Shown here: piece after piece, positions 3,601 through 17,994 of the stretch
Layout: every line of letters starts with the position of its first letter
Numbering within the stretch: the stretch's first letter is position 1
Assembly (NCBI GenBank): GCA_038203695.1
Contig: JBBRDQ010000001.1
Coordinates: 14,825 to 78,824, forward strand
Reading direction: 5' to 3'
From: Chitinophagales bacterium
GTDB lineage: Bacteria; Bacteroidota; Bacteroidia; Chitinophagales; Saprospiraceae
Length of the DNA: 64,000 nt
The notes under the pieces: generated by a model
Seen by the model: only the letters and a program-made list of their open reading frames with translations
What the model was told of the DNA's origin: nothing
Database searches by the model: none
Made by a program: the position numbers and the translations under genes

Positions 3601-5775
3601 TTACATTCCCCGCAATTGCCGGCATCGCGCAATTTCCTTGCGCACATACACATCCGGTCGGTCGGTCAGGCGTAAATCGCCCTTGAGTTGGTTCAGTTCT
3701 TCCACTCTTTCCGGCAAGAGTTTTTGCATTTTCAGCAGGTTGTGCAGTGCCAGATTCCAGGCACCCGCTTCTTCGAATGTTTCCACATCGCGTTGCAACA
3801 GGTTAAACTGCGAGGTGAGCGTCTTGAGCGCGCTTCCGGCCCGTTGATCCAGGGTGGTTTTTTTCTCGGTTATTTTGGCTGGATCGACCCGGTGTACGCC
3901 GTTGCGCGTTTTGAAAAGATCATTTTGGGCTTTATAAACCGCCAGCGTATCGAGTGCGCGATGGTAATACCGCAACGCATTTTTATAATCGTCGGCAAAA
4001 TAGTATTGGTCGCCCTGCGTCAGACTGCTGTCAACAATACTGGCGTACAAACGCTGTAATACGATGGCAGTATCCCGTTGCAGACTTACATCTTTGTGCG
4101 GGCGGATATTTTTCAGGACCCAGAATTTTAAATCGCGGCCTTCGATTGCTGCATACCCTTCAATGGCGGCCGCATATTGTTCCGTGTAGACATTTTTGTC
4201 GGCCTGAATCAATTCCTGGCGCGTGGCTTTGATCCAACTGATCATAAACCAGATGAAAAACCCCAGCGTCACCAGCAGCGACACAAAGGATGTAATCGAC
4301 ACCATGCGTGCCAGGCGGCGTTTTTCGCGGAAACTTTTCAGTTCGGCGGCCATTTCGGTTCGCCGCAGCGCTTCTGCTTTCAATTGGTTTTCCAGCGCTG
4401 CTTTCTCCCGGTCGGCGGCCTCGATTAAACGACGGCGGTCGCGCGATTCAACCACCGCCGGCAACAGCGTATCGTGGCTGATTTCGTAATAAAAGTCGTC
4501 CAGCCGGTTGTCTTTGCGCAAGAGGCGACTATCGACCAGCACATCCAGAAAATCCTGGTTTACCCCGGCATAACTGGACATCAGGTGATCGTCGACCATG
4601 CTACAGCGGCGACCATTGGGGGTGACCAGACTTTCTTCGATGAGACGCCGGGCCGTTGCGCGGAACCCTTCCGGATCCGCCACGGGTAAGGTGGTTTTCC
4701 GGGTGTAATTTTCCGGTAACGAATAGATCTGATTTTGATAAAATTCGCGTATTTCCCGCCCCAAACCTTCCAATTCCCCATAAAAAAGCGGCGTTACCTC
4801 AAATCCTTCCGGTTGCTCCTGCTCGATTATTTTTTCTTCGACAAACTGACACAGGATCTGCAAATTGAAGGATTCAATCTCGTCTTCCTTTTTCAGCAAC
4901 GCCAGATCGGTACTGGCCTGGGCCGGTGCCACCGTTTGCCGGCCGGCTAAAAAGTCTAGAATACCATCCATTGCGGCCGTATTATAGCGAAACCGCGGAC
5001 TGGCATAGGGTCCGCCGGGCGCGTTGGCCGGCGCTTCGATGGCCGATTGGGCTTGCAGCCGGTTGAGTGGTTGCAGTTGGTACCGGCTCTTGAGAATACC
5101 GGGAATGATCGGGCTGATCTCATCGAGCAAATGCAAAAAGTCGGAACGGATTGCGATCACGACGCGTATTTCCGGCGGTTCTTCCCACCAGTGCATCACC
5201 TCCGACGTTAGGCCAGTTTCTCCGGCTTCATAGCGGGCGGCCAGGTTGCTGCGCAGACTTTCCGGCATCGGGCCGTTGCATAAGTCGGCCAGTTCGCTCA
5301 AAAATTGCGAGCGGCTTTGCAGCGAATGTCCGAGCGTGAATATTTCCTCAAACTGGTCGAAGACCAGGATCGGGGTAGCGGGCAGCCCATTAAAATCGAA
5401 TTCAAAGCGTTTCATGCGCTCCCACAGCGTTTGCGGCTGTCCGGGCCGTTCGCCGGTCGTGTTGATACCGCCCATTTGCGGATGCTGCGCCAGGATGTCT
5501 CCGTAGCGCGCTACCAGCGTGAGGTCGGTTTTGTCGGCCCGCAGGAAAATCGGCACATACCCTTCGTGTTCGAGTTCCGGCCCTACGCCCGCCTGAAGGA
5601 GCGAGGTTTTTCCGATACCTGATTTGGCGAACAATACGACCAGTTGTTCGCGTTCGATCTGGTTCGACAAGCGCTGCACGTCGTCCTTGCGCCCGTAGAA
5701 CACGGCACTTTGGGTGCGCTCGAAGGGCTTGAGGCCCGGGTATCGGCGCGGCAGATTTGCGGCGAGTGGCATCAT
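3601..5775 (-). CDS. Membrane-anchored STAND (nSTAND/NACHT-like) P-loop NTPase with C-terminal helical TPR-like domain
   Basis: The N-terminus reads RRYPGLKPFERTQSAVFYGRKDD. Walker A is AKSGIGKTS (aa 49-57) and Walker B is ILVFDQFEEIF (aa 136-146). A coiled coil spans aa 450-490. One hydrophobic helix, MVSITSFVSLLVTLGFFIWFMISWI, spans aa 491-515. A helical tail of about 210 aa follows, containing YYFADDYKNALRYYHRALD. The ATG overlaps the upstream stop as ATGA. Confidence 0.8.
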   Translation of the reverse strand: MMPLAANLPRRYPGLKPFERTQSAVFYGRKDDVQRLSNQIEREQLVVLFAKSGIGKTSLLQAGVGPELEHEGYVPIFLRADKTDLTLVARYGDILAQHPQMGGINTTGERPGQPQTLWERMKRFEFDFNGLPATPILVFDQFEEIFTLGHSLQSRSQFLSELADLCNGPMPESLRSNLAARYEAGETGLTSEVMHWWEEPPEIRVVIAIRSDFLHLLDEISPIIPGILKSRYQLQPLNRLQAQSAIEAPANAPGGPYASPRFRYNTAAMDGILDFLAGRQTVAPAQASTDLALLKKEDEIESFNLQILCQFVEEKIIEQEQPEGFEVTPLFYGELEGLGREIREFYQNQIYSLPENYTRKTTLPVADPEGFRATARRLIEESLVTPNGRRCSMVDDHLMSSYAGVNQDFLDVLVDSRLLRKDNRLDDFYYEISHDTLLPAVVESRDRRRLIEAADREKAALENQLKAEALRRTEMAAELKSFREKRRLARMVSITSFVSLLVTLGFFIWFMISWIKATRQELIQADKNVYTEQYAAAIEGYAAIEGRDLKFWVLKNIRPHKDVSLQRDTAIVLQRLYASIVDSSLTQGDQYYFADDYKNALRYYHRALDTLAVYKAQNDLFKTRNGVHRVDPAKITEKKTTLDQRAGSALKTLTSQFNLLQRDVETFEEAGAWNLALHNLLKMQKLLPERVEELNQLKGDLRLTDRPDVYVRKEIARCRQLRGM

Positions 5776-7172
5776 GACGTGGCGGGGAGTTTTTCGAGGT
5801 AGCGTTTCAGCGTTTCGGTCAGTTCGCCCAGTTGCGCGTCCTGGTTATTACCTAAAACAGGGTTGCCATCGGAGGGGTGAATGGTGCGCAGGGCATTAAA
5901 AACCGTGTCCTGGATGTTCACCGTGCGCATTAACAGCGGCAATACCAGCAGTTTGCGCTGGCCGTTGTTGCGGGTATTATTAGCGGCGATGATTTCATTC
6001 AGCACCGGTAGGGCCGGATTTTCATCGGAAAAAAAATCGGCCGAAAGCAGTGGAATGACGACCTGGCTTTTTTGATAAGTTGCACGGATCCAATCAGTTG
6101 GGTCTCCGCCCAGGGCGTCGTTTGTATGCGTCCGAATGCGTACCCGCAATGGCAGCAGGCGTTGTTCGACGATTTTATACCCGGCGTCATCCTTGGTATC
6201 GTTGTATAAAATCAGGATATCGCCGCGCATCTGGGCCGCATCTGTGGCCGGGCCGGCCTTCATACTTTCGGCGGTGGCTACAAGTTGCGCAATAAAACTA
6301 TCCAGGTCAACTTTGGGGAACATCATGCCGAATTCGCCCTGGAAAAATACCCGCGCCTGCGCACCGGTGTCGCGTTTTTTATGCGGTTTATAGGCGAATG
6401 GCTGCATGTTCTTGCGCTCATTGCGGAAAATGGCATTGAACAAGACCCGCAGGCTCCAGTCGTCAAAATCGAACCCCAGGAACAGGTGAAAAATCGGTTT
6501 GTCCAGCGCTTTCAGCAGACTATTGGGCGGGCCTTCGTTCTGTTGGCCGGTAATCTTATTGATAAAATTGAGTTGGTCGCTGTAACTCAGCACCATGCTC
6601 TGCGGTTTGTCTTTGTAATAGCCGAACAGGTTGTAAATCAGCGGCGGCGCTTTGTCGCCAAATTCGTACAGCGGGTCCTTGGGTTCCGGTTTTTCAAAAT
6701 TGTAGTAGGCAAAACGCTTGGGCGAGGCCGCTGCCTCGTACAATTCGGCAAAAAAGTCATCCGGCGTCGTATTGATAATAATCCGGAACGGCAGGTACGA
6801 CAATTGTTCCAGCGCGGGCGACAACTGGACCGTCTGGGCATGTTGCTGGTAAAATTTCTGGATTTCGCCGCGTAGAATAATATCGGCTACGCGTTCCACA
6901 CTGCGATTGAGCAGCAAACTGGTCACATACGACAGCGATTCGGCTTCTTCGGGCAGGAGTTCCAGGCCGTATTTCTGGGCCAGAAAATTAGCGCACAGTT
7001 CCGTCAGCGGCCGGTACGAACCATCGGGCTGTTTTACCGAAATAGCCGAGGGCCCCAGGAAAAGCACACAGGAGCCGTCGCCGATCTGCCGGGCTATACT
7101 CTCATATAGTTCGGGGGATAAAGTACCGTCGGCGTTGAGCAGCCCGGACGAAGCGAATGTTTCGATTGGCAT
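5772..7172 (-). CDS. SIR2-like (SIR2_2-type) domain fused to a C-terminal TIR-like domain
   Basis: aa 33-250 follow the SIR2_2 layout: CVLFLGPSAIS, IINTTPDDFFAELY, IYNLFGYY..MVLSYSDQLNF and HLFLGFDFDDWSLRVLF. aa 317-440 follow the TIR layout: DILILYNDTKDD, VRIRTH, GGD and VVIPLLSADFFSDE..LNEI. Confidence 0.7.
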   Translation of the reverse strand: MPIETFASSGLLNADGTLSPELYESIARQIGDGSCVLFLGPSAISVKQPDGSYRPLTELCANFLAQKYGLELLPEEAESLSYVTSLLLNRSVERVADIILRGEIQKFYQQHAQTVQLSPALEQLSYLPFRIIINTTPDDFFAELYEAAASPKRFAYYNFEKPEPKDPLYEFGDKAPPLIYNLFGYYKDKPQSMVLSYSDQLNFINKITGQQNEGPPNSLLKALDKPIFHLFLGFDFDDWSLRVLFNAIFRNERKNMQPFAYKPHKKRDTGAQARVFFQGEFGMMFPKVDLDSFIAQLVATAESMKAGPATDAAQMRGDILILYNDTKDDAGYKIVEQRLLPLRVRIRTHTNDALGGDPTDWIRATYQKSQVVIPLLSADFFSDENPALPVLNEIIAANNTRNNGQRKLLVLPLLMRTVNIQDTVFNALRTIHPSDGNPVLGNNQDAQLGELTETLKRYLEKLPATS

Positions 7173-7206
7173 GAAAGAATAAAGACTCCCTTAAATTTGG
7201 CTGCGA

Positions 7207-7214
7207 CAAAGGTA
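7207..7214 (-). promoter_or_regulatory. -7 box (TAccTTTG on the minus strand) for the SIR2/TIR-STAND operon
   Basis: The plus strand reads caaaggta at 7207-7214, 35 nt upstream of the ATG at 7172. Confidence 0.4.
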
Positions 7215-7722
7215 GTTAAGTTGGGGTTTTATGCAAGGGGTGGTTTTAAATGATTGGGAGTCGTGGATTGCGGGCGATCGCGTGCTTACCGGCTTTGGGG
7301 GCGGGGCAAATGCGCTGCTCCGTTACTAGGCAGTGACCAGGCGCGGCGGGTGGATTTCTGCCGCAGCAGTGTCTCCGACCTGCTGCTCACGTACAGCACG
7401 GTGATCCACCAAATGGCCATAAAAGTCTGGCAGATTCAAGTTTCCAATGCAACAGAATTAGGTTTTATAGAAACGAAATTGACCCCTGCTTGCGCGAGGC
7501 TAATCCCGCGCACTAAAAAAAGAACCCCTCGCTCAATCGGGCTATGCCCGCTACGCCAATCCGCAACACACGTTCAGACCAGACTAAAATTACCCCATCT
7601 TTGCAATACACTGCTTTGTAAAAGGTTTGTCGAACAATCATAGCCCGAAAAATACGATGACAGTCCCGCGCAAGCGAGGGTTATTTTAGCCCTATATTCG
7701 CATCGTTAAACAATCCATACCC

Positions 7723-8103
7723 ATGCCTGAATCAGCCCTCATCCAACAACTGCTCGAAAGAGAATCGGCCACTTGGCGGGCCAACGATTTTCAGGGCCAT
7801 GCCGCGTGCTGGCATATTCAGCCGTACAGCCGCATCCTGGTTTCCACGATTACGGGTGAAACGTTGGATGTTGATCCGGCGCTGATGCAGGATGCCGGCG
7901 CAGCCATGGGCGATGGCGGTAGTTCGGTCAATGCCAATTATAGAATGAGCATTCATGGCGATCACGCCTGGGTGAGTCACGACGAGATTTCCACTGCGCC
8001 AAACGGTGCAAAGAGCTATTCGCACGAGATTCGTATCTTGGAAAAGGTAGGCGGTACATGGAAACTGGTAGGGCAGTCGATTCATTTTTACAAGCCTGCA
8101 TAA
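7723..8103 (+). CDS. NTF2/SnoaL-like fold protein
   Basis: It is 126 aa with an alpha+beta cone-like pattern (ATWRANDFQG ... HAWVSHDE ... GGTWKLVGQS). The assignment is by general resemblance only. Confidence 0.45.
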   Translation: MPESALIQQLLERESATWRANDFQGHAACWHIQPYSRILVSTITGETLDVDPALMQDAGAAMGDGGSSVNANYRMSIHGDHAWVSHDEISTAPNGAKSYSHEIRILEKVGGTWKLVGQSIHFYKPA

Positions 8104-12349: not shown

Positions 12350-13732
12350 TTACGCAAACAACCGGAAGATCCAGTACAACAACGCCGAACTGACAAACGT
12401 CACCGGCAGGGTGAGCAACCAGGCCAAGCCGATGCTTTTGATGGTTTTGCGGTCCAGGTTTTTGGTCCCGCCGGAAGCAACCATCGTGCCGGCAATACCC
12501 GAGGACAGGACGTGCGTAGTAGACACCGGCAATCCTACCAGCGTGCTTAAGCCGATGGTGGTACTGGCTACCAGTTCTGCCGAGGCACCCTGTGCATAGG
12601 TAAGGTGACTTTTACCGATCTTTTCGCCGATCGTCACCACGATCCGTTTCCAGCCGACCATGGTACCGATGCCTAAAGAAAAGGCGATCAAGGCTTTCAC
12701 CCACAGAGGCGCAAATTCATAACTCTCCTTCAGGCTGGCGATTTCTGCCTTGGCTACTTTCGCCGTTTCGCCGGTAATTGAATTATTATTGATCGCTGTC
12801 TGTAGGTCGCCGGAATAAACCTGGAGCATTTTACGCAGGTTCAGAATGTCCGCTTTTTGGCCGCTATTGCTTACAATATCGATCCCGGCCGTTACTTTGG
12901 CCGAAGAAGTGAGGATATCCTTTATGCGCGCATCCATGGCCGGTTCGGGTATGGTACGTACGGCCGTTTCTACTTGTGCCACACTGCTCTTCATGGCTTG
13001 GAGCGGCAGATTCGAATTAAGGGCGAACTGCATCGGCAGGAAGGAAATTAAAACGACCAGCATCAGGCCGACGCCTTTTTGACCGTCATTCGAGCCGTGG
13101 AAAAAACTGACCAGGGTACAAGTGACTACCAGCACGGCGCGGATCCATAGGGGCGGCGCTTTCTTTGCATCGGGTTCCTTAAAAATAACCTTGCTCTTGA
13201 TGGTGGACTTCAGGATGAACATCAGCAGTACCGCTAATCCAAAGCCTAAAAATGGTGACAATAGCAGCGAGAGAAAGATCTCCTGGGCTTTGTGCCAGTT
13301 CACGCCGGCACCGCCGTTGATAAACCAGAAGGCAAATCCGCCGCCCAGCAGCGATCCGGTGAGCGCATGCGAAGAGGAACAGGGAATGCCGACATACCAA
13401 GTCCCCAGATTCCAGATAATAGCCGCTAATAGAATGGCCATAACCAGTGCAATATTCTGCCCGAGGCTCATGGCCAGCAGGTCGTTGAGCGGCAGCATTT
13501 TGATCATGCCCATCGCTACGGCAATACCGCCGACCCATACGCCCAGGAAATTCCACAATCCCGACCACACGACAGCGACTTGGGGTTTGAGCGTTCTCGT
13601 ATAAATAACGGTCGCGACTGCATTGGCCGTGTCGTGAAAACCGTTGATCGTTTCATAGAAACAAACGGCTAAAATGCACAGAATGAGGAAAATAGAACTT
13701 GCGGTGTCTAAGCCGGAGATAAATCCTAACAT
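12350..13732 (-). CDS. Inorganic phosphate transporter, PiT (PHO4) family
   Basis: It has the duplicated PiT signatures NGFHDTANAVAT and FFHGSNDGQKG and is polytopic. Confidence 0.8.
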   Translation of the reverse strand: MLGFISGLDTASSIFLILCILAVCFYETINGFHDTANAVATVIYTRTLKPQVAVVWSGLWNFLGVWVGGIAVAMGMIKMLPLNDLLAMSLGQNIALVMAILLAAIIWNLGTWYVGIPCSSSHALTGSLLGGGFAFWFINGGAGVNWHKAQEIFLSLLLSPFLGFGLAVLLMFILKSTIKSKVIFKEPDAKKAPPLWIRAVLVVTCTLVSFFHGSNDGQKGVGLMLVVLISFLPMQFALNSNLPLQAMKSSVAQVETAVRTIPEPAMDARIKDILTSSAKVTAGIDIVSNSGQKADILNLRKMLQVYSGDLQTAINNNSITGETAKVAKAEIASLKESYEFAPLWVKALIAFSLGIGTMVGWKRIVVTIGEKIGKSHLTYAQGASAELVASTTIGLSTLVGLPVSTTHVLSSGIAGTMVASGGTKNLDRKTIKSIGLAWLLTLPVTFVSSALLYWIFRLFA

Positions 13733-13813
13733 GTCGTATAAAGAAGGTTAAAAAATCTTGCAAAAGTGCAGTAACTCCCTGTTACACCGCTCTTTGCCCG
13801 ATTTAAGTTAATG

Positions 13814-15679
13814 TTAATCATTGTCCAGTACGGGTAATAAAACGATTACCCGAGTACCCTGACGGGCGCCCTGGCTTTCTTCGCCCAGGTCGGTAATGAG
13901 CACATACGGCTCCACCGCCGGGCTTTTTTCCGTCTGATGCAGCAGATGCAGCCGTTCGCGGGTGATGTCCATCCCGCGCGAGCGATGTTTCTGATATGCC
14001 GCCTGGTCCGATTGTTTTTCCTTGCCTTTGTTGTAGCCCACGCCGTCGTCTTCGATGGTACAACGCAGTACGGCCCCCTCGTTTTCCAGGTTGAAATAAA
14101 TCTCCAGGCGTCCTTTCGCCAAGGGTCGCAGTCCGTGTTCGATGGCATTTTCGACAAACGGCTGCAGGATCATGGTCGGCATTTCCAGTTCGCGGGGTTT
14201 GATGTCGCGCGCCCAACTGATGTTGAATTTCAACTGATCCTGGAAGCGCAATTTGCGGTTGATCTCCAGGTAGCGTTCCAGGAATTCGACTTCCTGCTCC
14301 AGCGTCACTACTTCCATATCCGAGTAATCGAGCGTGTGGCGCATCATTTTGGCAAATTTGGCCAAATACGATTCCGCTTCGTCGTTGCGGTTGGATGTGA
14401 TCAAACCCTGAATGGCATTGAGCGCATTGAACAGAAAGTGGGGATTCATCTGCGACCGCAAGGCCCGCAATTGCAAACCCGCCATGCGCAAGCGGGCGAT
14501 CTGAGCCTCCTGTCGGCTGCGTTCGAGTTCGTGACCGGCCTCAATCTCCCGGCGTTCCCGGTCGCGGGTTTCCGCAAAATATTCGCGGTGCTGGGTCGTG
14601 GCCCGGGTCTGCCACTTGTATGCCGCAGCGTAGTCGTTCTGCTCGGCTTTGAGCGCGGCCATATTCTGGCTCACCTGCCCGAGATGGTGTTTATCGTGCC
14701 CTTTTTCACCCACTTCCCAGGCTTGTTGCAGGTGTTTTTCCGCGTTGGCCAGGTCGTCGAGTTCGATGTAAAGACCGGCGCGCCAGTTTTCTATTTTGGA
14801 TAAATTGGTGAAATCGGCGGTCTTGACCGGATGTTCGTAATGCGCGGCCGCCTGACTGAACAAATCGAACGCGCTTTCGGCATCGCTGTCCAGGAAAGCC
14901 AGGATGCCCAGATTGCTGAGCGCCAGGGTTTGCGCTTCGATATCACCGCCGGCGGCGTATTGCACGGCATTTCCAAAAAATATCCGGGCTTGATCGGTAT
15001 TGTCGAGCGCCAGTTCGGCGCGCCCGGCATTGAGATAATGCCAGGCCACCCGCGGCCGCAGTCCGTGTTGTTCTACAATCGGCAATACGCGGCGATAGGC
15101 CTCCAGGCTCTGGTCCTTTTCGCCCAGTTTTTCGTACAGATCACCCAGTCCGTTGGCGACCAGGGTCTGGATGTAAAAATCCTTGAGCGGCGACTTGTCA
15201 TCCAAACCGAGTAAATCTTTTTCGGCGGTCATCAGTGCATCGAGGGCCTGGCGATGGTTGCCCAGATGCAAATGTAAAAAACCTTCCCGGCAGGATACGT
15301 GTGCCCGCAATGCCTCGGCTGATTCGTCATTGAGGTATTCCCGCGCCGTATCGAGGCTGTCCTGGACGGCCGACCAGTCGCCGAGATTGAGTTGAATGGC
15401 GGCCAAATCGGCCCAGGTTTCCACCAGAACCGGCGTGTCCGACAGTTCTTCCAGAATCTCGATCGCCTGATGGGCGTGCTCCAGCGCCAGGGTGTAATGT
15501 TGCCACTGGTTGTGTAAAAATGCCCCGTACCGATAATACGCCAGCCGCACGTCGAATGGCGTGTCGGGCGTAACGACTTCCGACAGTTCGCGCAAAGCAA
15601 TGCGCGCTTGTTCAAAATCGGTAAAAGCCCAGATCGCCAGTTGGGCGGCGAGGGAAGACTGGTACGTGGGTTTTTGCAC
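13814..15679 (-). CDS. Cytoplasmic TPR-repeat sensor histidine kinase, LytS/YehU type
   Basis: The N-terminal ~370 aa are TPR-like helices, followed by a coiled coil. It carries the LRSQMNPHFLFNALN H-box (His_kinase family), FVENAIEHG and DDGVGY ATPase boxes. No TM helix is seen. Confidence 0.7.
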   Translation of the reverse strand: MQKPTYQSSLAAQLAIWAFTDFEQARIALRELSEVVTPDTPFDVRLAYYRYGAFLHNQWQHYTLALEHAHQAIEILEELSDTPVLVETWADLAAIQLNLGDWSAVQDSLDTAREYLNDESAEALRAHVSCREGFLHLHLGNHRQALDALMTAEKDLLGLDDKSPLKDFYIQTLVANGLGDLYEKLGEKDQSLEAYRRVLPIVEQHGLRPRVAWHYLNAGRAELALDNTDQARIFFGNAVQYAAGGDIEAQTLALSNLGILAFLDSDAESAFDLFSQAAAHYEHPVKTADFTNLSKIENWRAGLYIELDDLANAEKHLQQAWEVGEKGHDKHHLGQVSQNMAALKAEQNDYAAAYKWQTRATTQHREYFAETRDRERREIEAGHELERSRQEAQIARLRMAGLQLRALRSQMNPHFLFNALNAIQGLITSNRNDEAESYLAKFAKMMRHTLDYSDMEVVTLEQEVEFLERYLEINRKLRFQDQLKFNISWARDIKPRELEMPTMILQPFVENAIEHGLRPLAKGRLEIYFNLENEGAVLRCTIEDDGVGYNKGKEKQSDQAAYQKHRSRGMDITRERLHLLHQTEKSPAVEPYVLITDLGEESQGARQGTRVIVLLPVLDND

Positions 15680-15825
15680 TGGCTAATTTTAGTTTTTTTG
15701 ATTTTGAGGCGTAATCTGCAATCGGACCTCCATGCGGACCGGCTCACAAAGCACGGTAAAATAGCCCATTCTTTTCCTAAAAAAAGTACTTTTACCCAAA
15801 AATCCGTCACTACAATTTCCTATAC

Positions 15826-17994
15826 ATGAAACAATTACCCGTTTTTTCCATTTTGGCAGTACTCGTTTTCATGGCCTGCCAACAGCCGACTACCACTACC
15901 ACTAACCCACTTGTTTTTACTGTGCAACCATCCGTTTTTCATCCCGAACAATTTACGCCACCCCATCCCGAGAAAAAATTGAAAGAACTGGTCGCCGCCA
16001 ATGGCGACAAACGTTCGGACGAATATTACTGGCTCAACGAACGGGAAAACCCCGCCGTTACCGCTTACCTCCAAGCCGAAAATCAATACATGGATTCCGT
16101 CTTGGCGCCAATTGCCCCGCTGCGGGAAAAGTTATTTGCTGAGTTAAAAGCCCGTATCCAGGAAGACGACGCCTCGGTGCCGTATTTCAAAAACGGCTAC
16201 TGGTACATTACACGCTTTGAAAAAGGCAAGGAATATCCAATCTACAGCCGTAAAAAAGGCGATCTGAATGCACCGGAAGAAATCATGGTCGACGTCAACG
16301 AACTCGCCAAAGGCAAACCCTACTGCCAACTCGGTGATATGACGGTCAGTCCGGACAACCGGCTACTGGCGTACGGCGTGGATTACACCGGTCGCAATCT
16401 CTTTAAATTATATTTTAAAGACCTGACTACCAATCAATTATTGCCCGATGAATTTGACTATGCCGGCTCCGCCGTGTGGGCCAACGACAACAAAACGATC
16501 CTGTACGATACGAAAGACGCGGTTACGCTGCGCAACGATAAAGTCTGGCGGCACGTCATGGGCACCGACCACAAACAGGACGTGCTGATGTATTTTGAAA
16601 AGGACGACACGCAGTACGTCTATTTGTCCAAATCCAAATCGGAGCAGTATTTTTTTATCAATTGTGCCTACACCCAGACGGTGGAAGTGCTGTACCTCAG
16701 TGCCAACGACCCGACCGGAAAATTCCAGGTCGTACGGCCGCGCGAAAAGGATTTTTACTACTCGCTGGAACACTGGAATGATAAATTCCTGGTCCGCACC
16801 AACTGGGATGCACCCAATTTCCGCCTGATGGAAACGCCGGTAACTGCTCCACAACGCGAAAACTGGAAGGATGTGCTGCCGCACCGCGACGCTGTGTTGC
16901 TCGACAATTTTACCGTTTTCAAAGACTATCTGGTTACCGAAGAGCACAAGGGTGGTTTGAGTCAGGTGCACCTGATCCGCTGGGCCGACAAAGCGGACCA
17001 CTACATCGAAGTGGGCGAACCGACCTATGCTTGCAACCTGGGAACCAACCCTGAATTTGACACTAAAAATCTGCGCTATGTTTTCACCAGCCTGAAGACG
17101 CCGTACACAACGGTGGACTACGACATGGATAGTCGCGTCAAAACGGTGAAGAAGGTAGCGCCGGTGCTGGGCGGTTTTGATGCCAATAATTACACGACGG
17201 AATTCGTGCTGGTAACCGCCCGCGACGGGGTCAAAGTGCCGGTTTCGATCGTCTACAAAAAAGGTCTGCAACGCAACGGCTCGGCGCCGTGCCACCTCAC
17301 TGGCTACGGCAGTTATGGTTTTTCGTACGATCCGTCGTTCAATCGCGACAAGATCAGTTTGTTAGACCGCGGTTTTGTGGTCGCCATCGCGCACATTCGC
17401 GGCGGCATGGAAATGGGTTACAAATGGTACGAAGACGGCAAAATGATGCATAAGATGAACACTTTCAATGACTTTATTGATTGTGCCGATATGCTGGTAA
17501 AAGAAAAGTACACGGCATCCGATCGCCTGTTTGCCGAAGGCCGCTCTGCGGGTGGATTGCTAATGGGCGCGGTCTCCAACCTGCGGCCCGACCTGTTCAA
17601 AGGCATTATTACCGGCGTTCCTTTTGTGGATGTATTGACCACCATGAGCGACGCGAGTATCCCGCTCACTACCGGCGAGTACAGCGAATGGGGCAACCCG
17701 AATATCGCGGAGCAATACGCATATATGAAAACGTATTCGCCCTACGACAACCTGAAAGCCGGCAACTATCCGAATTTGCTGGTCCTCACGTCTCTCAGCG
17801 ACTCACAAGTCCAGTATTTCGAACCCGCCAAATACGTCGCCCGGCTGCGCGAACTGAAAACAGATAAAAATCCGCTGCTTTTCTACACCAATATGACCGG
17901 CTCCCACGGTGGCTCTTCCGGCCGCTTCGAACGCCTCAAAGAACGGGCGCTGGAGTACGGGTGGATGCTGGGATTGCTGGGAGTTAATGATTAA
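15826..17994 (+). CDS. ptrB: Oligopeptidase B (S9A prolyl oligopeptidase family)
   Basis: It is 722 aa with a signal peptide or lipobox, DEYYWLNERENP near the N-terminus and the catalytic Ser motif GRSAGGLLMG. Confidence 0.8.
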   Translation: MKQLPVFSILAVLVFMACQQPTTTTTNPLVFTVQPSVFHPEQFTPPHPEKKLKELVAANGDKRSDEYYWLNERENPAVTAYLQAENQYMDSVLAPIAPLREKLFAELKARIQEDDASVPYFKNGYWYITRFEKGKEYPIYSRKKGDLNAPEEIMVDVNELAKGKPYCQLGDMTVSPDNRLLAYGVDYTGRNLFKLYFKDLTTNQLLPDEFDYAGSAVWANDNKTILYDTKDAVTLRNDKVWRHVMGTDHKQDVLMYFEKDDTQYVYLSKSKSEQYFFINCAYTQTVEVLYLSANDPTGKFQVVRPREKDFYYSLEHWNDKFLVRTNWDAPNFRLMETPVTAPQRENWKDVLPHRDAVLLDNFTVFKDYLVTEEHKGGLSQVHLIRWADKADHYIEVGEPTYACNLGTNPEFDTKNLRYVFTSLKTPYTTVDYDMDSRVKTVKKVAPVLGGFDANNYTTEFVLVTARDGVKVPVSIVYKKGLQRNGSAPCHLTGYGSYGFSYDPSFNRDKISLLDRGFVVAIAHIRGGMEMGYKWYEDGKMMHKMNTFNDFIDCADMLVKEKYTASDRLFAEGRSAGGLLMGAVSNLRPDLFKGIITGVPFVDVLTTMSDASIPLTTGEYSEWGNPNIAEQYAYMKTYSPYDNLKAGNYPNLLVLTSLSDSQVQYFEPAKYVARLRELKTDKNPLLFYTNMTGSHGGSSGRFERLKERALEYGWMLGLLGVND

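Follow-up and report, generated by a model that had tools for sequence, protein, structure and literature searches.

Conflict systems of multicellular bacteria are the setting in which the nSTAND1 family of NTPases was defined, with TIR, SIR2 or peptidase domains as effectors, and systems that join nSTAND1 to SIR2 or TIR were outlined in the same work (Kaur, Burroughs, Iyer and Aravind, 2021, eLife; PMC8195603). The effector positions of such systems have been noted to be often filled by enzyme domains that are inactive (PMC7159879). The initial annotation of the locus presented here held that its combination of a SIR2/TIR protein and a STAND NTPase could not be mapped to any named system. This view is not supported, as both SIR2-nSTAND1 fusions and operons of split SIR2, nSTAND1 and repeat proteins exist. 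P0316 and P0269 each join the SIR2 subfamily of gene A to nSTAND1 in a single protein; a paralogous clade encodes SIR2-TIR and nSTAND1 proteins with a 4-nt overlap, followed by LRR and TPR proteins; and the Haliscomenobacter hydrossis plasmid pHALHY02 carries SIR2-EAD11, nSTAND1 and two WD40 proteins, again with a -4 overlap. What was borne out is that the models of PADLOC do not cover the pair: gene A had no match, while gene B obtained only a weak mad8 P-loop match (E 4e-4) and no Avs model.

The window, that is, the whole stretch of 64,000 nucleotides that was analysed, contains the two genes at the positions and with the lengths initially given, including the ATGA overlap (Table 1). We propose that they encode an nSTAND1 (NLR-like) conflict and signalling system of the sort found in multicellular bacteria, in a variant that is split and tethered to the membrane; to this tentative reading we assign a probability of about 0.45. 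The two genes form one translationally coupled operon, as first suggested, given the fact that the overlap is present here and recurs in related loci. The TAccTTTG box upstream was also found in its place. Its proposed role as the promoter of gene A is plausible from its position; because TAnnTTTG occurs in the window at chance level (49 matches against 42 ± 6 in shuffles), the motif itself adds nothing to this position.

Table 1. Positions of the features of the A-B locus within the window.
Feature	Position	Strand	Basis or remark
Gene A, SIR2-fold and TIR-fold protein, 466 aa	5772..7172	-	ORF
Gene B, membrane-anchored nSTAND1 NTPase, 724 aa	3601..5775	-	ORF
ATGA stop/start overlap of A and B	5772..5775	-	Read in the sequence
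TAccTTTG box, TACCTTTG, Bacteroidota -7-type promoter consensus	7207..7214	-	35 nt before the gene A ATG
SIR2-like domain of A, aa ~20-305	6258..7115	-	Without canonical catalytic Asn and His
TIR-like domain of A, aa ~316-462	5787..6227	-	Without canonical catalytic Glu (V390)
nSTAND1 NTPase module of B, aa 12-433 (NBD, helical domain, winged helix)	4477..5742	-	Pfam, AF2
Walker A of B, aa 50-58	5602-5628	-	GxxGxGK[ST] type, intact
Walker B of B, aa 136-144	5344-5370	-	hhhhD and acidic residues, intact
Long helix/coiled-coil stalk of B, aa 435-490	4306..4473	-	AF2 helix 435-479, low-confidence hinge 479-490
Single transmembrane helix of B, aa 491-515, MVSITSFVSLLVTLGFFIWFMISWI	4231..4305	-	Hydrophobic peak
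C-terminal helical domain of B, 209 aa, aa 516-724	3604..4230	-	AF2 helices, pLDDT >90

The SIR2, TIR and STAND folds that had been read from the sequence were correct, as shown by profiles, AlphaFold models and Foldseek. Gene A, for which 186 full-length homologues were collected, passes the Pfam SIR2_2 threshold (32.4 bits, cut-off 24.5), and its AlphaFold (AF2) model (pLDDT 85) matched ThsA, Avs5 and DSR2 in Foldseek, with an E-value of 1.6e-11 for the SIR2 fold. The family profile of the N-terminal domain retrieved BcThsA (E 1.6e-12), SeThsA (6e-12) and KomC (2e-7). On its own, the protein falls below the cut-off of Pfam TIR_2 (20.8, cut-off 28); the family profile of the C-terminal domain matched the solved TIR structures of Cat1 (E 1.8e-10), AbTIR (1.9e-5) and L6 (2.9e-5), as well as MyD88 at E ~1e-3.

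The catalytic Asn and His of SIR2 NADases lie in the motifs TTNYD and K[LMF]HG. In the alignment to solved SIR2 proteins, the catalytic Asn (N112) corresponds to T136 of gene A, within the motif IINTTPDD (132-139), and the catalytic His (H152/H146) corresponds to F183, within IYNLFG (179-184). Among the 86 aligned homologues, 85 carry T, S or A at position 136. The GAGxS NAD-binding loop retains its first Gly (G40, 86/86), followed by P41, and its Ser position is variable. In the TIR-like domain, the catalytic Glu (WxxxEL, at the start of helix alphaC) aligns with V390, the residue before L391; at position 390, 75 of the 86 clade members carry L. E384 and E393, which had been put forward as the TIR Glu positions to mutate, both miss this site; E393 is acidic in 83/86 sequences, but lies three residues downstream. 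Gene A is therefore probably a double pseudoenzyme, with SIR2 and TIR folds that appear to lack the canonical catalytic residues. The alignments behind this reading as inactive are at 13-16% identity, although they give a consistent result for four solved SIR2 proteins, namely three orthologues of ThsA together with KomC, and for three TIR enzymes.

Gene B, with 665 homologues, matched the nSTAND1 family PF20703 at 121.6 bits over aa 12-254 (cut-off 27.1), and its AF2 model (pLDDT 88) resembled Cdc6/Orc1, Avs5, Apaf-1 and MalT in Foldseek. Residues K56, T57, D140, E143, E144, R210, H434 and D435 were each found in 86/86 homologues. Gene B is thus predicted to be a catalytically competent STAND ATPase, and H434, which together with D435 directly follows the NTPase module, may by its position be the MHD-like His after the winged helix. 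The membrane anchor, long helix, single transmembrane helix and helical tail described in the initial annotation were all recovered from the AF2 model and from hydrophobicity in homologues, 85 of 86 of which display one hydrophobic peak. The content of K and R averages 5.2 before this helix and 2.1 after it, a bias which indicates an N-in/C-out topology. The ATPase module would be cytoplasmic, so that the tail would face the periplasm; this predicted location follows from the single helix and the charge bias only. The tail is the fastest-evolving part of the protein, at 36% identity to homologues versus 62% for the NBD, and searches of Pfam and PDB for its family returned only weak matches of the single-TPR type. 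No N-terminal effector domain was found ahead of the RRYPGLKPFE motif, and the effector-type protein is indeed a polypeptide separate from its STAND partner. Gene B therefore departs from the tripartite STAND layout of a fused N-terminal effector and a C-terminal WD40, TPR or LRR region, with a coiled coil, a transmembrane helix and a helical domain instead.

The pair was found in at least 70 species-level genomes, nearly all of them uncultured Saprospiraceae/Lewinellaceae. The ATGA (-4) overlap is kept in ~38 of 47 related loci, and the identities between A proteins track those between the corresponding B proteins (Spearman 0.77, 780 pairs). This demonstrates that A and B are co-inherited and co-evolving within a Saprospiraceae clade. 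The pair had also been regarded as an inserted module, which is contradicted by its genomic context. Its GC content equals that of the flanks, no mobility genes were found at the locus, and a frequent site, between purA-DUF4271-hemD and a 2-hydroxyacid dehydrogenase, recurs in homologues that are 36-52% identical to gene A of the window. Both genes remain intact even where they lie 720 kb apart. The pair has thus been inherited vertically within the clade and is not a recently inserted island.

It is unusual for a defence system to be passed on vertically for so long amid housekeeping genes, and this counts against a conflict-system reading, as does the fact that defence models match only a minority of the neighbouring genes (about a dozen of 125 non-redundant neighbours, estimated from the family list), the recurrent neighbours being mostly housekeeping genes. 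In a non-immune explanation, filamentous Saprospiraceae would have domesticated A and B as a transmembrane signalling pair specific to their lineage, for envelope stress or for cell-cell or developmental signalling, with immune-type folds reused as scaffolds. The recurrent site, the persistence after separation, the matching GC and the missing mobility genes all favour it; so do a clade of solo A genes, where A comes after a PadR-PspC envelope-stress pair in at least 10 species, and the 42 invariant columns of gene A, which indicate strong purifying selection despite the lost catalytic residues. However, all relatives whose architecture is informative resemble conflict systems, with EAD11, CHAT, LRR, WD40 or patatin-like domains. 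A and B also evolve faster than their housekeeping neighbours (identity 0.55 versus 0.75-0.81), and even the closest relatives carry the pair in differing contexts. The hemD site is often without the pair, which occupies it in one of five informative close metagenome contigs, and a pattern scan did not detect the pair in cultured Saprospirales. We consider the non-immune explanation unlikely.

A more speculative and less probable possibility is that gene B is a transmembrane NLR-like receptor, whose periplasm-facing domain would pick up a cue from the envelope or from outside and whose ATP-driven oligomerisation would signal inward to a non-catalytic TIR/SIR2 scaffold. This would amount to an outside-in layout of the TLR/MyD88 kind, with a STAND ATPase as its base, in a near-core pair of filamentous Saprospiraceae, using two pseudoenzymes instead of NAD+ depletion.

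The initial annotation had favoured a canonical abortive-infection module, in which B would detect phage and A would use its SIR2 and/or TIR domain to deplete NAD+. All three folds are indeed typical of NAD-depleting defence, as the ThsA, Avs5 and DSR2 matches illustrate; the NADases Cat1 and AbTIR are among the TIR-profile matches, and restriction-modification and other defence genes adjoin some related loci. In addition, N134 and N181 are conserved close to the canonical SIR2 positions and, with the acidic E393, could reflect shifted or different chemistry. Against this, the SIR2 Asn and His and the TIR Glu on which ThsA, KomC, AbTIR and Cat1 depend align with T136, F183 and V390 of gene A, so the label of NAD-consuming effector finds no support. 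The His position is F (51) or L (35) in all 86 clade members, and carries His in only one of the 149 wider relatives scanned; no His column of gene A is conserved above 69/86. The Asn aligns with T, S or A, the GAGxS loop appears to have lost its Ser, the TIR Glu aligns with L or V among clade members and chiefly with Q among wider relatives, and gene A is without any PADLOC match. The replacements are found throughout the wider family, which leaves canonical NAD+ cleavage by gene A unsupported, and because both NAD-destroying folds appear to have lost their usual catalytic residues, NAD depletion by the pair is improbable. We regard the canonical module as quite unlikely. The least probable explanation reverses the roles, so that B would be the executioner, its transmembrane helix and stalk clustering on oligomerisation to perturb the membrane, and A would serve as bait or guard, being a dead mimic of SIR2-TIR proteins that would be bound or modified by the proteins with which phages counter SIR2/TIR immunity; the membrane part is the sole recognisable effector of B, A keeps immune folds without their chemistry, and decoy roles have been suggested for the inactive enzyme domains of related systems (PMC7159879), but this is inference throughout, leaves the divergent periplasmic tail of B without a role, and sits poorly with the strong conservation of A, where a bait chasing phage proteins might be expected to diversify.

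We infer a functional link between A and B from the kept overlap, the correlated identities, the fusions in relatives, the recurring SIR2-TIR and nSTAND1 operons and the SIR2-EAD11, nSTAND1 and WD40 genes of pHALHY02. In the split, membrane-tethered system that we favour, the predicted periplasmic tail of B would sense a cue that is external or associated with the envelope, and the signal would run through the stalk, upon which the STAND module would swap its nucleotide and oligomerise at the membrane. The oligomer would then engage A, whose amount would match that of B through the coupled message and which takes the position of the SIR2 or TIR domain that is fused in relatives. A would presumably act through assembly or ligand binding, and not through canonical NAD+ hydrolysis, and the likeliest candidate output would be growth arrest or death of a filament cell that is infected or damaged.

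Comparison with known systems places the pair at varying distances from each. Animal non-catalytic TIR adaptors and receptors (MyD88, TLR) share an outside-facing domain, a single transmembrane helix and, on the cytoplasmic side, a TIR without the catalytic Glu; this is an analogy of layout only, as in the A-B pair the TIR lies on a separate protein and the receptor is an ATPase, and homology is evident only for the general TIR fold. Type I Thoeris (ThsA SIR2-SLOG with ThsB TIR) is closer, since the SIR2 domain of A is nearest to ThsA by profile and Foldseek, and the TIR domains of the wider relatives of A match PADLOC ThsB1 (down to 3e-37). Unlike in Thoeris, SIR2 and TIR are fused in A, the SLOG or Macro ligand sensor is absent, both domains are devoid of their catalytic residues, the partner is a STAND ATPase and A itself has no PADLOC match. 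Avs5 (SIR2-STAND, AVAST type 5, PDB 9jap) likewise combines a SIR2 fold with a STAND ATPase, and Foldseek aligned both A (E 2.4e-9) and B (E 3.7e-5) to it. Avs5 joins an active SIR2, which has the catalytic His, and a cytoplasmic sensor at the C-terminus in one polypeptide, whereas the A-B pair consists of two polypeptides, with a SIR2 domain lacking Asn and His, an extra TIR-like domain and a membrane anchor.

The nSTAND1 conflict systems, exemplified by pHALHY02, share with the pair the NTPase family PF20703, the His-less SIR2 subfamily with YNLFG and INTTPD motifs, an effector-type gene directly upstream with a 4-nt overlap, and filamentous, multicellular hosts. They differ in that the A-B pair carries a TIR-like domain in place of the EAD adaptor and is without a WD40, LRR or TPR sensor, gene B having instead a coiled coil, a transmembrane helix and a novel, predicted periplasmic helical domain; the pair is, moreover, chromosomal and vertically inherited, in contrast to pHALHY02. 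The theme of SIR2/TIR with nSTAND1 is therefore already known, and what is new is the membrane-tethered, split layout with a probable double-pseudoenzyme partner.

Gene A, which encodes a 466-residue protein with SIR2 and TIR folds, and gene B, which encodes a membrane-anchored nSTAND1 ATPase, form a translationally coupled pair. Both reading frames and the ATGA overlap that joins them are present as the initial annotation had described, and their positions are listed in the following table.

Coordinates of the A-B gene pair and of the putative promoter box in the window
Feature	Position	Strand	Description
Gene A	5772..7172	(-)	ORF, 466 aa
Gene B	3601..5775	(-)	ORF, 724 aa
ATGA, stop of A over start of B	5772-5775	(-)	Read from sequence
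TACCTTTG box	7214->7207	(-)	35 nt 5' of the ATG of A

The TACCTTTG box is positionally plausible as a Bacteroidota promoter element and is no evidence by itself, because the TAnnTTTG pattern occurs at chance level (49 matches in the window vs 42 +/- 6 in shuffles). The box was therefore rejected as statistical promoter evidence; the TAccTTTG box described earlier does lie ahead of A. Searches of the window found neither sigma-70 promoters nor intrinsic terminators above chance, and no RNA family. The pair is flanked by ordinary genes, namely those for a CHU_C/T9SS protein and gap on one side and, on the other, a 550-bp spacer followed by DUF4440, a 2'-5' RNA-ligase-like gene, an HbpS-like gene and an M20 peptidase. 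The spacer upstream of A holds a long-range inverted repeat with nested complementary segments (7476-7689), the arms of which (7476-7501 and 7662-7687) are 26 nt long and 77% complementary. This region folds better than shuffles (z of -3.9 on the plus strand and -2.7 on the minus strand), has no match in Rfam, and may represent either a MITE-like element or a structured leader or sRNA. Upstream of A, in divergent orientation, there is a DUF4440/SnoaL-like gene in the window (7723-8103) and also in the closest related locus, L159 (188-658; 66% identity), where HxlR and NUDIX genes occupy the place of the 550-bp spacer; the spacer may be the trace of a deletion.

The fold of each protein was analysed using profiles and predicted structures. 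In A, the SIR2_2 domain scored above the Pfam cut-off and TIR_2 below it with this single sequence. The AlphaFold model of A (pLDDT 85.3) matched ThsA over nearly the whole length in Foldseek, followed by Avs5, DSR2 and KomC, and the N-terminal domain profile matched BcThsA (1.6e-12), SeThsA (6e-12), EcThsA (3e-9) and KomC (2e-7). ThsA is a SIR2-SLOG protein, and the C-terminal domain of A was therefore examined separately, with a profile built from 28 family members and compared with structures. The TIR structures matched were Cat1 (1.8e-10), AbTIR (1.9e-5), L6 (2.9e-5) and MyD88 (about 1e-3). A SLOG domain, suggested by the near-full-length ThsA alignment, was ruled out, as the domain-only profile matched many TIR structures and no SLOG; judged by these profiles, the C-terminal domain is thus a TIR domain. 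B matched nSTAND1 in Pfam at 121.6 bits, and in its AlphaFold model (pLDDT 88.3) the NBD, helical domain and winged helix extend to ~aa 433. A hinge then joins one long helix (435-479) to another, which includes the hydrophobic segment, and the C-terminus is a helical bundle. The best Foldseek matches of this model were Cdc6/Orc1, Avs5 (SIR2-STAND), Apaf-1 and MalT. The SIR2 and TIR folds of A and the STAND NTPase fold of B, all proposed initially from the sequence, are therefore supported. Across 86 homologues of B, K56/T57, D140/E143/E144, R210 and the H434-D435 pair after the winged helix are invariant; the ATPase motifs are intact, so that B should be an active ATP switch.

Close homologues number 186 for A and 665 for B, and all of their named sources are Saprospiraceae, Lewinellaceae or 'Chitinophagales' metagenome-assembled genomes. 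A pattern scan using one genome per species gave 70 loci, all in uncultured genomes, with two taxonomic outliers on short contigs. The proposed pairing was borne out by adjacency, with B directly downstream of A in about 52 loci and the exact ATGA overlap kept in about 38 of 47. The two genes co-evolve, as seen in the correlation of their pairwise identities (Spearman 0.77 over 780 pairs), and both evolve faster than their housekeeping neighbours (mean pairwise identity 0.55 vs 0.75-0.81). In a recurrent context, DUF4271, hemD, A, B, a 2-hydroxyacid dehydrogenase and WD40 follow one another on one strand, with purA before them and Lnb and glucosaminidase-LysM after them on the opposite strand; the purA-DUF4271-hemD context spans homologues 36 to 52% identical to the A of the window. 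Other contexts are seen too, among them those of the window and its two closest relatives. The 64-kb window contains none of the genes that recur as neighbours at other loci, and neither gap nor any other window neighbour lies next to the pair in the 70 related loci, so that the universal synteny with gap raised as a possibility in the initial annotation is absent. Five close hemD contigs extend far enough downstream to be informative, and only one carries the pair; those without A-B are rearranged and not clean empty sites, because the downstream 2-hydroxyacid dehydrogenase is missing too.

In a subclade of about 14 species, A stands alone at its locus, and in one of these genomes the two genes lie 720 kb apart on the same contig, both full length. 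Solo A (L032, L035, L038, L044, L046, L048, L065, L067, L069 and L076) always has mnmE after it and, before it, a PadR-like regulator and a 734-aa PspC/toast-rack/DUF2807 envelope-stress protein, a context that may be a link to envelope stress or plain synteny. A or B is split into 2-4 ORFs at five loci (L031, L066, L068, L069 and L070), three of them on contigs named 'tig...', apparently long-read assemblies; these splits may be indel errors instead of pseudogenes. Genome JADJFA01 has two copies of A (L031 and L069).

The initial annotation had proposed an insertion; a recent horizontal one was ruled out: the GC content of the pair (0.52-0.58) equals that of the flanks, the flanks contain no tRNA or mobility gene, no homologue was found in phage records, and plasmid matches are distant and partial only (25-29% identity). 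A decaying relic was likewise ruled out by the number of columns that are invariant across 86 sequences, 42 for A and more than 100 for B. The pair is long-lived and chromosomal, mostly vertically inherited and rearranged at times, and is neither a recent island nor strictly core. We regard as rather unlikely the reading that a pair with this mode of inheritance is domesticated for signalling and not immune; it would mean that immune modules have been domesticated for signalling in multicellular bacteria. Among 125 non-redundant neighbouring proteins within three genes, a minority match PADLOC defence models (type IIG R-M, PDC-M29, PDC-S01/S05, ThsB-like TIR, AriA and LmuB). One solo-A locus beside mnmE (L076, GCA_963852445.1) is a defence-type neighbourhood, with a gene for a 983-aa EAD11-domain protein (EAD, effector-associated domain) and a type I restriction HsdR gene (13397-17344) ~4 kb from A. 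At 17 loci, a 300-aa WD40 beta-propeller protein is encoded two genes downstream of B, after the 2-hydroxyacid dehydrogenase (gene cluster 5; e.g. L001, 14708-15604). It might be part of the A-B module, because related nSTAND1 operons encode WD40 sensors separately; no homologue of it occurs in the window.

The alignments of the SIR2 domain were all concordant. The 'TTNYD' of ThsA lies opposite 'NTTPD', which places the catalytic Asn at T136, and the 'K[ML]HG' of the ThsA proteins and the 'KFHG' of KomC lie opposite 'NLFG', which places the catalytic His at F183. Within the clade, position 136 is T, S or A in 85 of 86 members and position 183 is F (51) or L (35). The motif scan of 149 wider relatives found a His at the catalytic position in only 1, conservation of His in A does not exceed 69/86 in any column, and the first Gly alone is kept in the GAGxS loop. 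In the TIR domain, the catalytic Glu of Cat1 (WDEL), AbTIR (NYEL) and L6 (LMEL) aligns to the residue preceding L391, namely V390, a position that is L in 75/86 clade members and Q (9), L (7) or E (5) among 30 members of the wider family. The residues first nominated as the TIR Glu do not occupy this site: E384 is not conserved, and E393, acidic in 83/86 clade members, is offset downstream by three residues and lacks conservation in the wider family. From these alignments we conclude that the canonical NADase site is absent from both domains, which are probably inactive, making A a probable double pseudoenzyme; the conserved N134, N181 and E393 leave room for shifted or different chemistry. 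The canonical NAD+-depleting abortive-infection model, with A as an NAD-consuming effector through one or both of its folds, is therefore improbable, the SIR2 Asn and His being replaced by T136 and F183 and the TIR Glu by V390. The observations of the initial annotation (ORFs, overlap and folds) hold and its interpretation does so in part, the NAD-depletion component not being supported. Annotating NADase effectors from SIR2_2 and TIR_2 domain matches alone would mislabel a large A family.

B has a single TM helix. One hydrophobic peak was observed in 85 of 86 homologues, with a second peak in the remaining one, and K+R averages 5.2 in the 15 residues before the peak vs 2.1 after. The ATPase has to be on the cytoplasmic side, which predicts a periplasmic location for the 209-aa tail (516-724). 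It is the most divergent region of B (36% identity vs 62% for the NBD), and Pfam and PDB profile searches for its family gave only single TPR-like matches (one helix pair) with E above 0.01. With a membrane helix in B and replaced catalytic residues in A, the roles could be reversed, the membrane part of B killing and A serving as bait, which we consider improbable as well. We tentatively favour, with a probability of about 0.45, a reading in which the tail would be a periplasmic sensor domain, ATP-driven B would oligomerise at the membrane and engage A via its TIR-like domain, and the output of A would be non-catalytic. It is unusual for a STAND switch embedded in the membrane to be combined with a probable double pseudoenzyme. 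If the pair is immune, it would extend NLR-type sensing to the cell envelope and provide an example of SIR2 and TIR folds that act independently of NAD+ chemistry.

A profile search of 1.84 billion representatives identified 4667 relatives at E up to 1e-3 and 164 at E up to 1e-30. Many are 430-460 aa long and cover almost the entire profile, with SIR2 then TIR in every one that was run against Pfam; the relatives include SIR2-nSTAND1 fusions (proteins P0316 and P0269), SIR2-EAD11 and SIR2-CHAT. A paralogous clade has SIR2-TIR, a 4-nt overlap and nSTAND1 (577 aa), with LRR and TPR proteins downstream in one locus and WD40 proteins in the other. Plasmid pHALHY02 of Haliscomenobacter hydrossis DSM 1100 (144 kb; locus L160, 732-7709) carries SIR2-EAD11, a 4-nt overlap, nSTAND1 (550 aa) and two WD40. 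H. hydrossis is a cultured Saprospirales strain and a tractable relative for experiments. The definition of the nSTAND1 family comes from conflict systems that have TIR, SIR2 and peptidase effectors and occur in multicellular bacteria (PMC8195603); according to the same group, the effector positions of related systems often contain inactive enzyme domains (PMC7159879). Given these published systems and the SIR2-nSTAND1 relatives, the pair is thus a variant of an already known nSTAND1 class. The combination had been called unmappable to any named system, which is contradicted by the known SIR2/nSTAND1 relatives and remains true of PADLOC, which has no model for the pair; searches for 'SIR2-TIR' and of recent TIR and STAND surveys found no description of it. 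The pair differs from nSTAND1 conflict systems in that A has a TIR-like domain instead of an EAD adaptor, and B has a TM helix and a predicted periplasmic domain instead of repeat sensors.

The STAND/NLR defences known from bacteria are single proteins of the cytoplasm that recognise phage proteins and trigger an enzyme fused to them. In contrast, the STAND switch of B has a membrane location, with one domain predicted to point outwards, and its partner A is a separate protein that carries replacements at the canonical catalytic positions of its two immune enzyme folds. The A-B pair differs from these defences further in having been kept by vertical descent across the whole clade.
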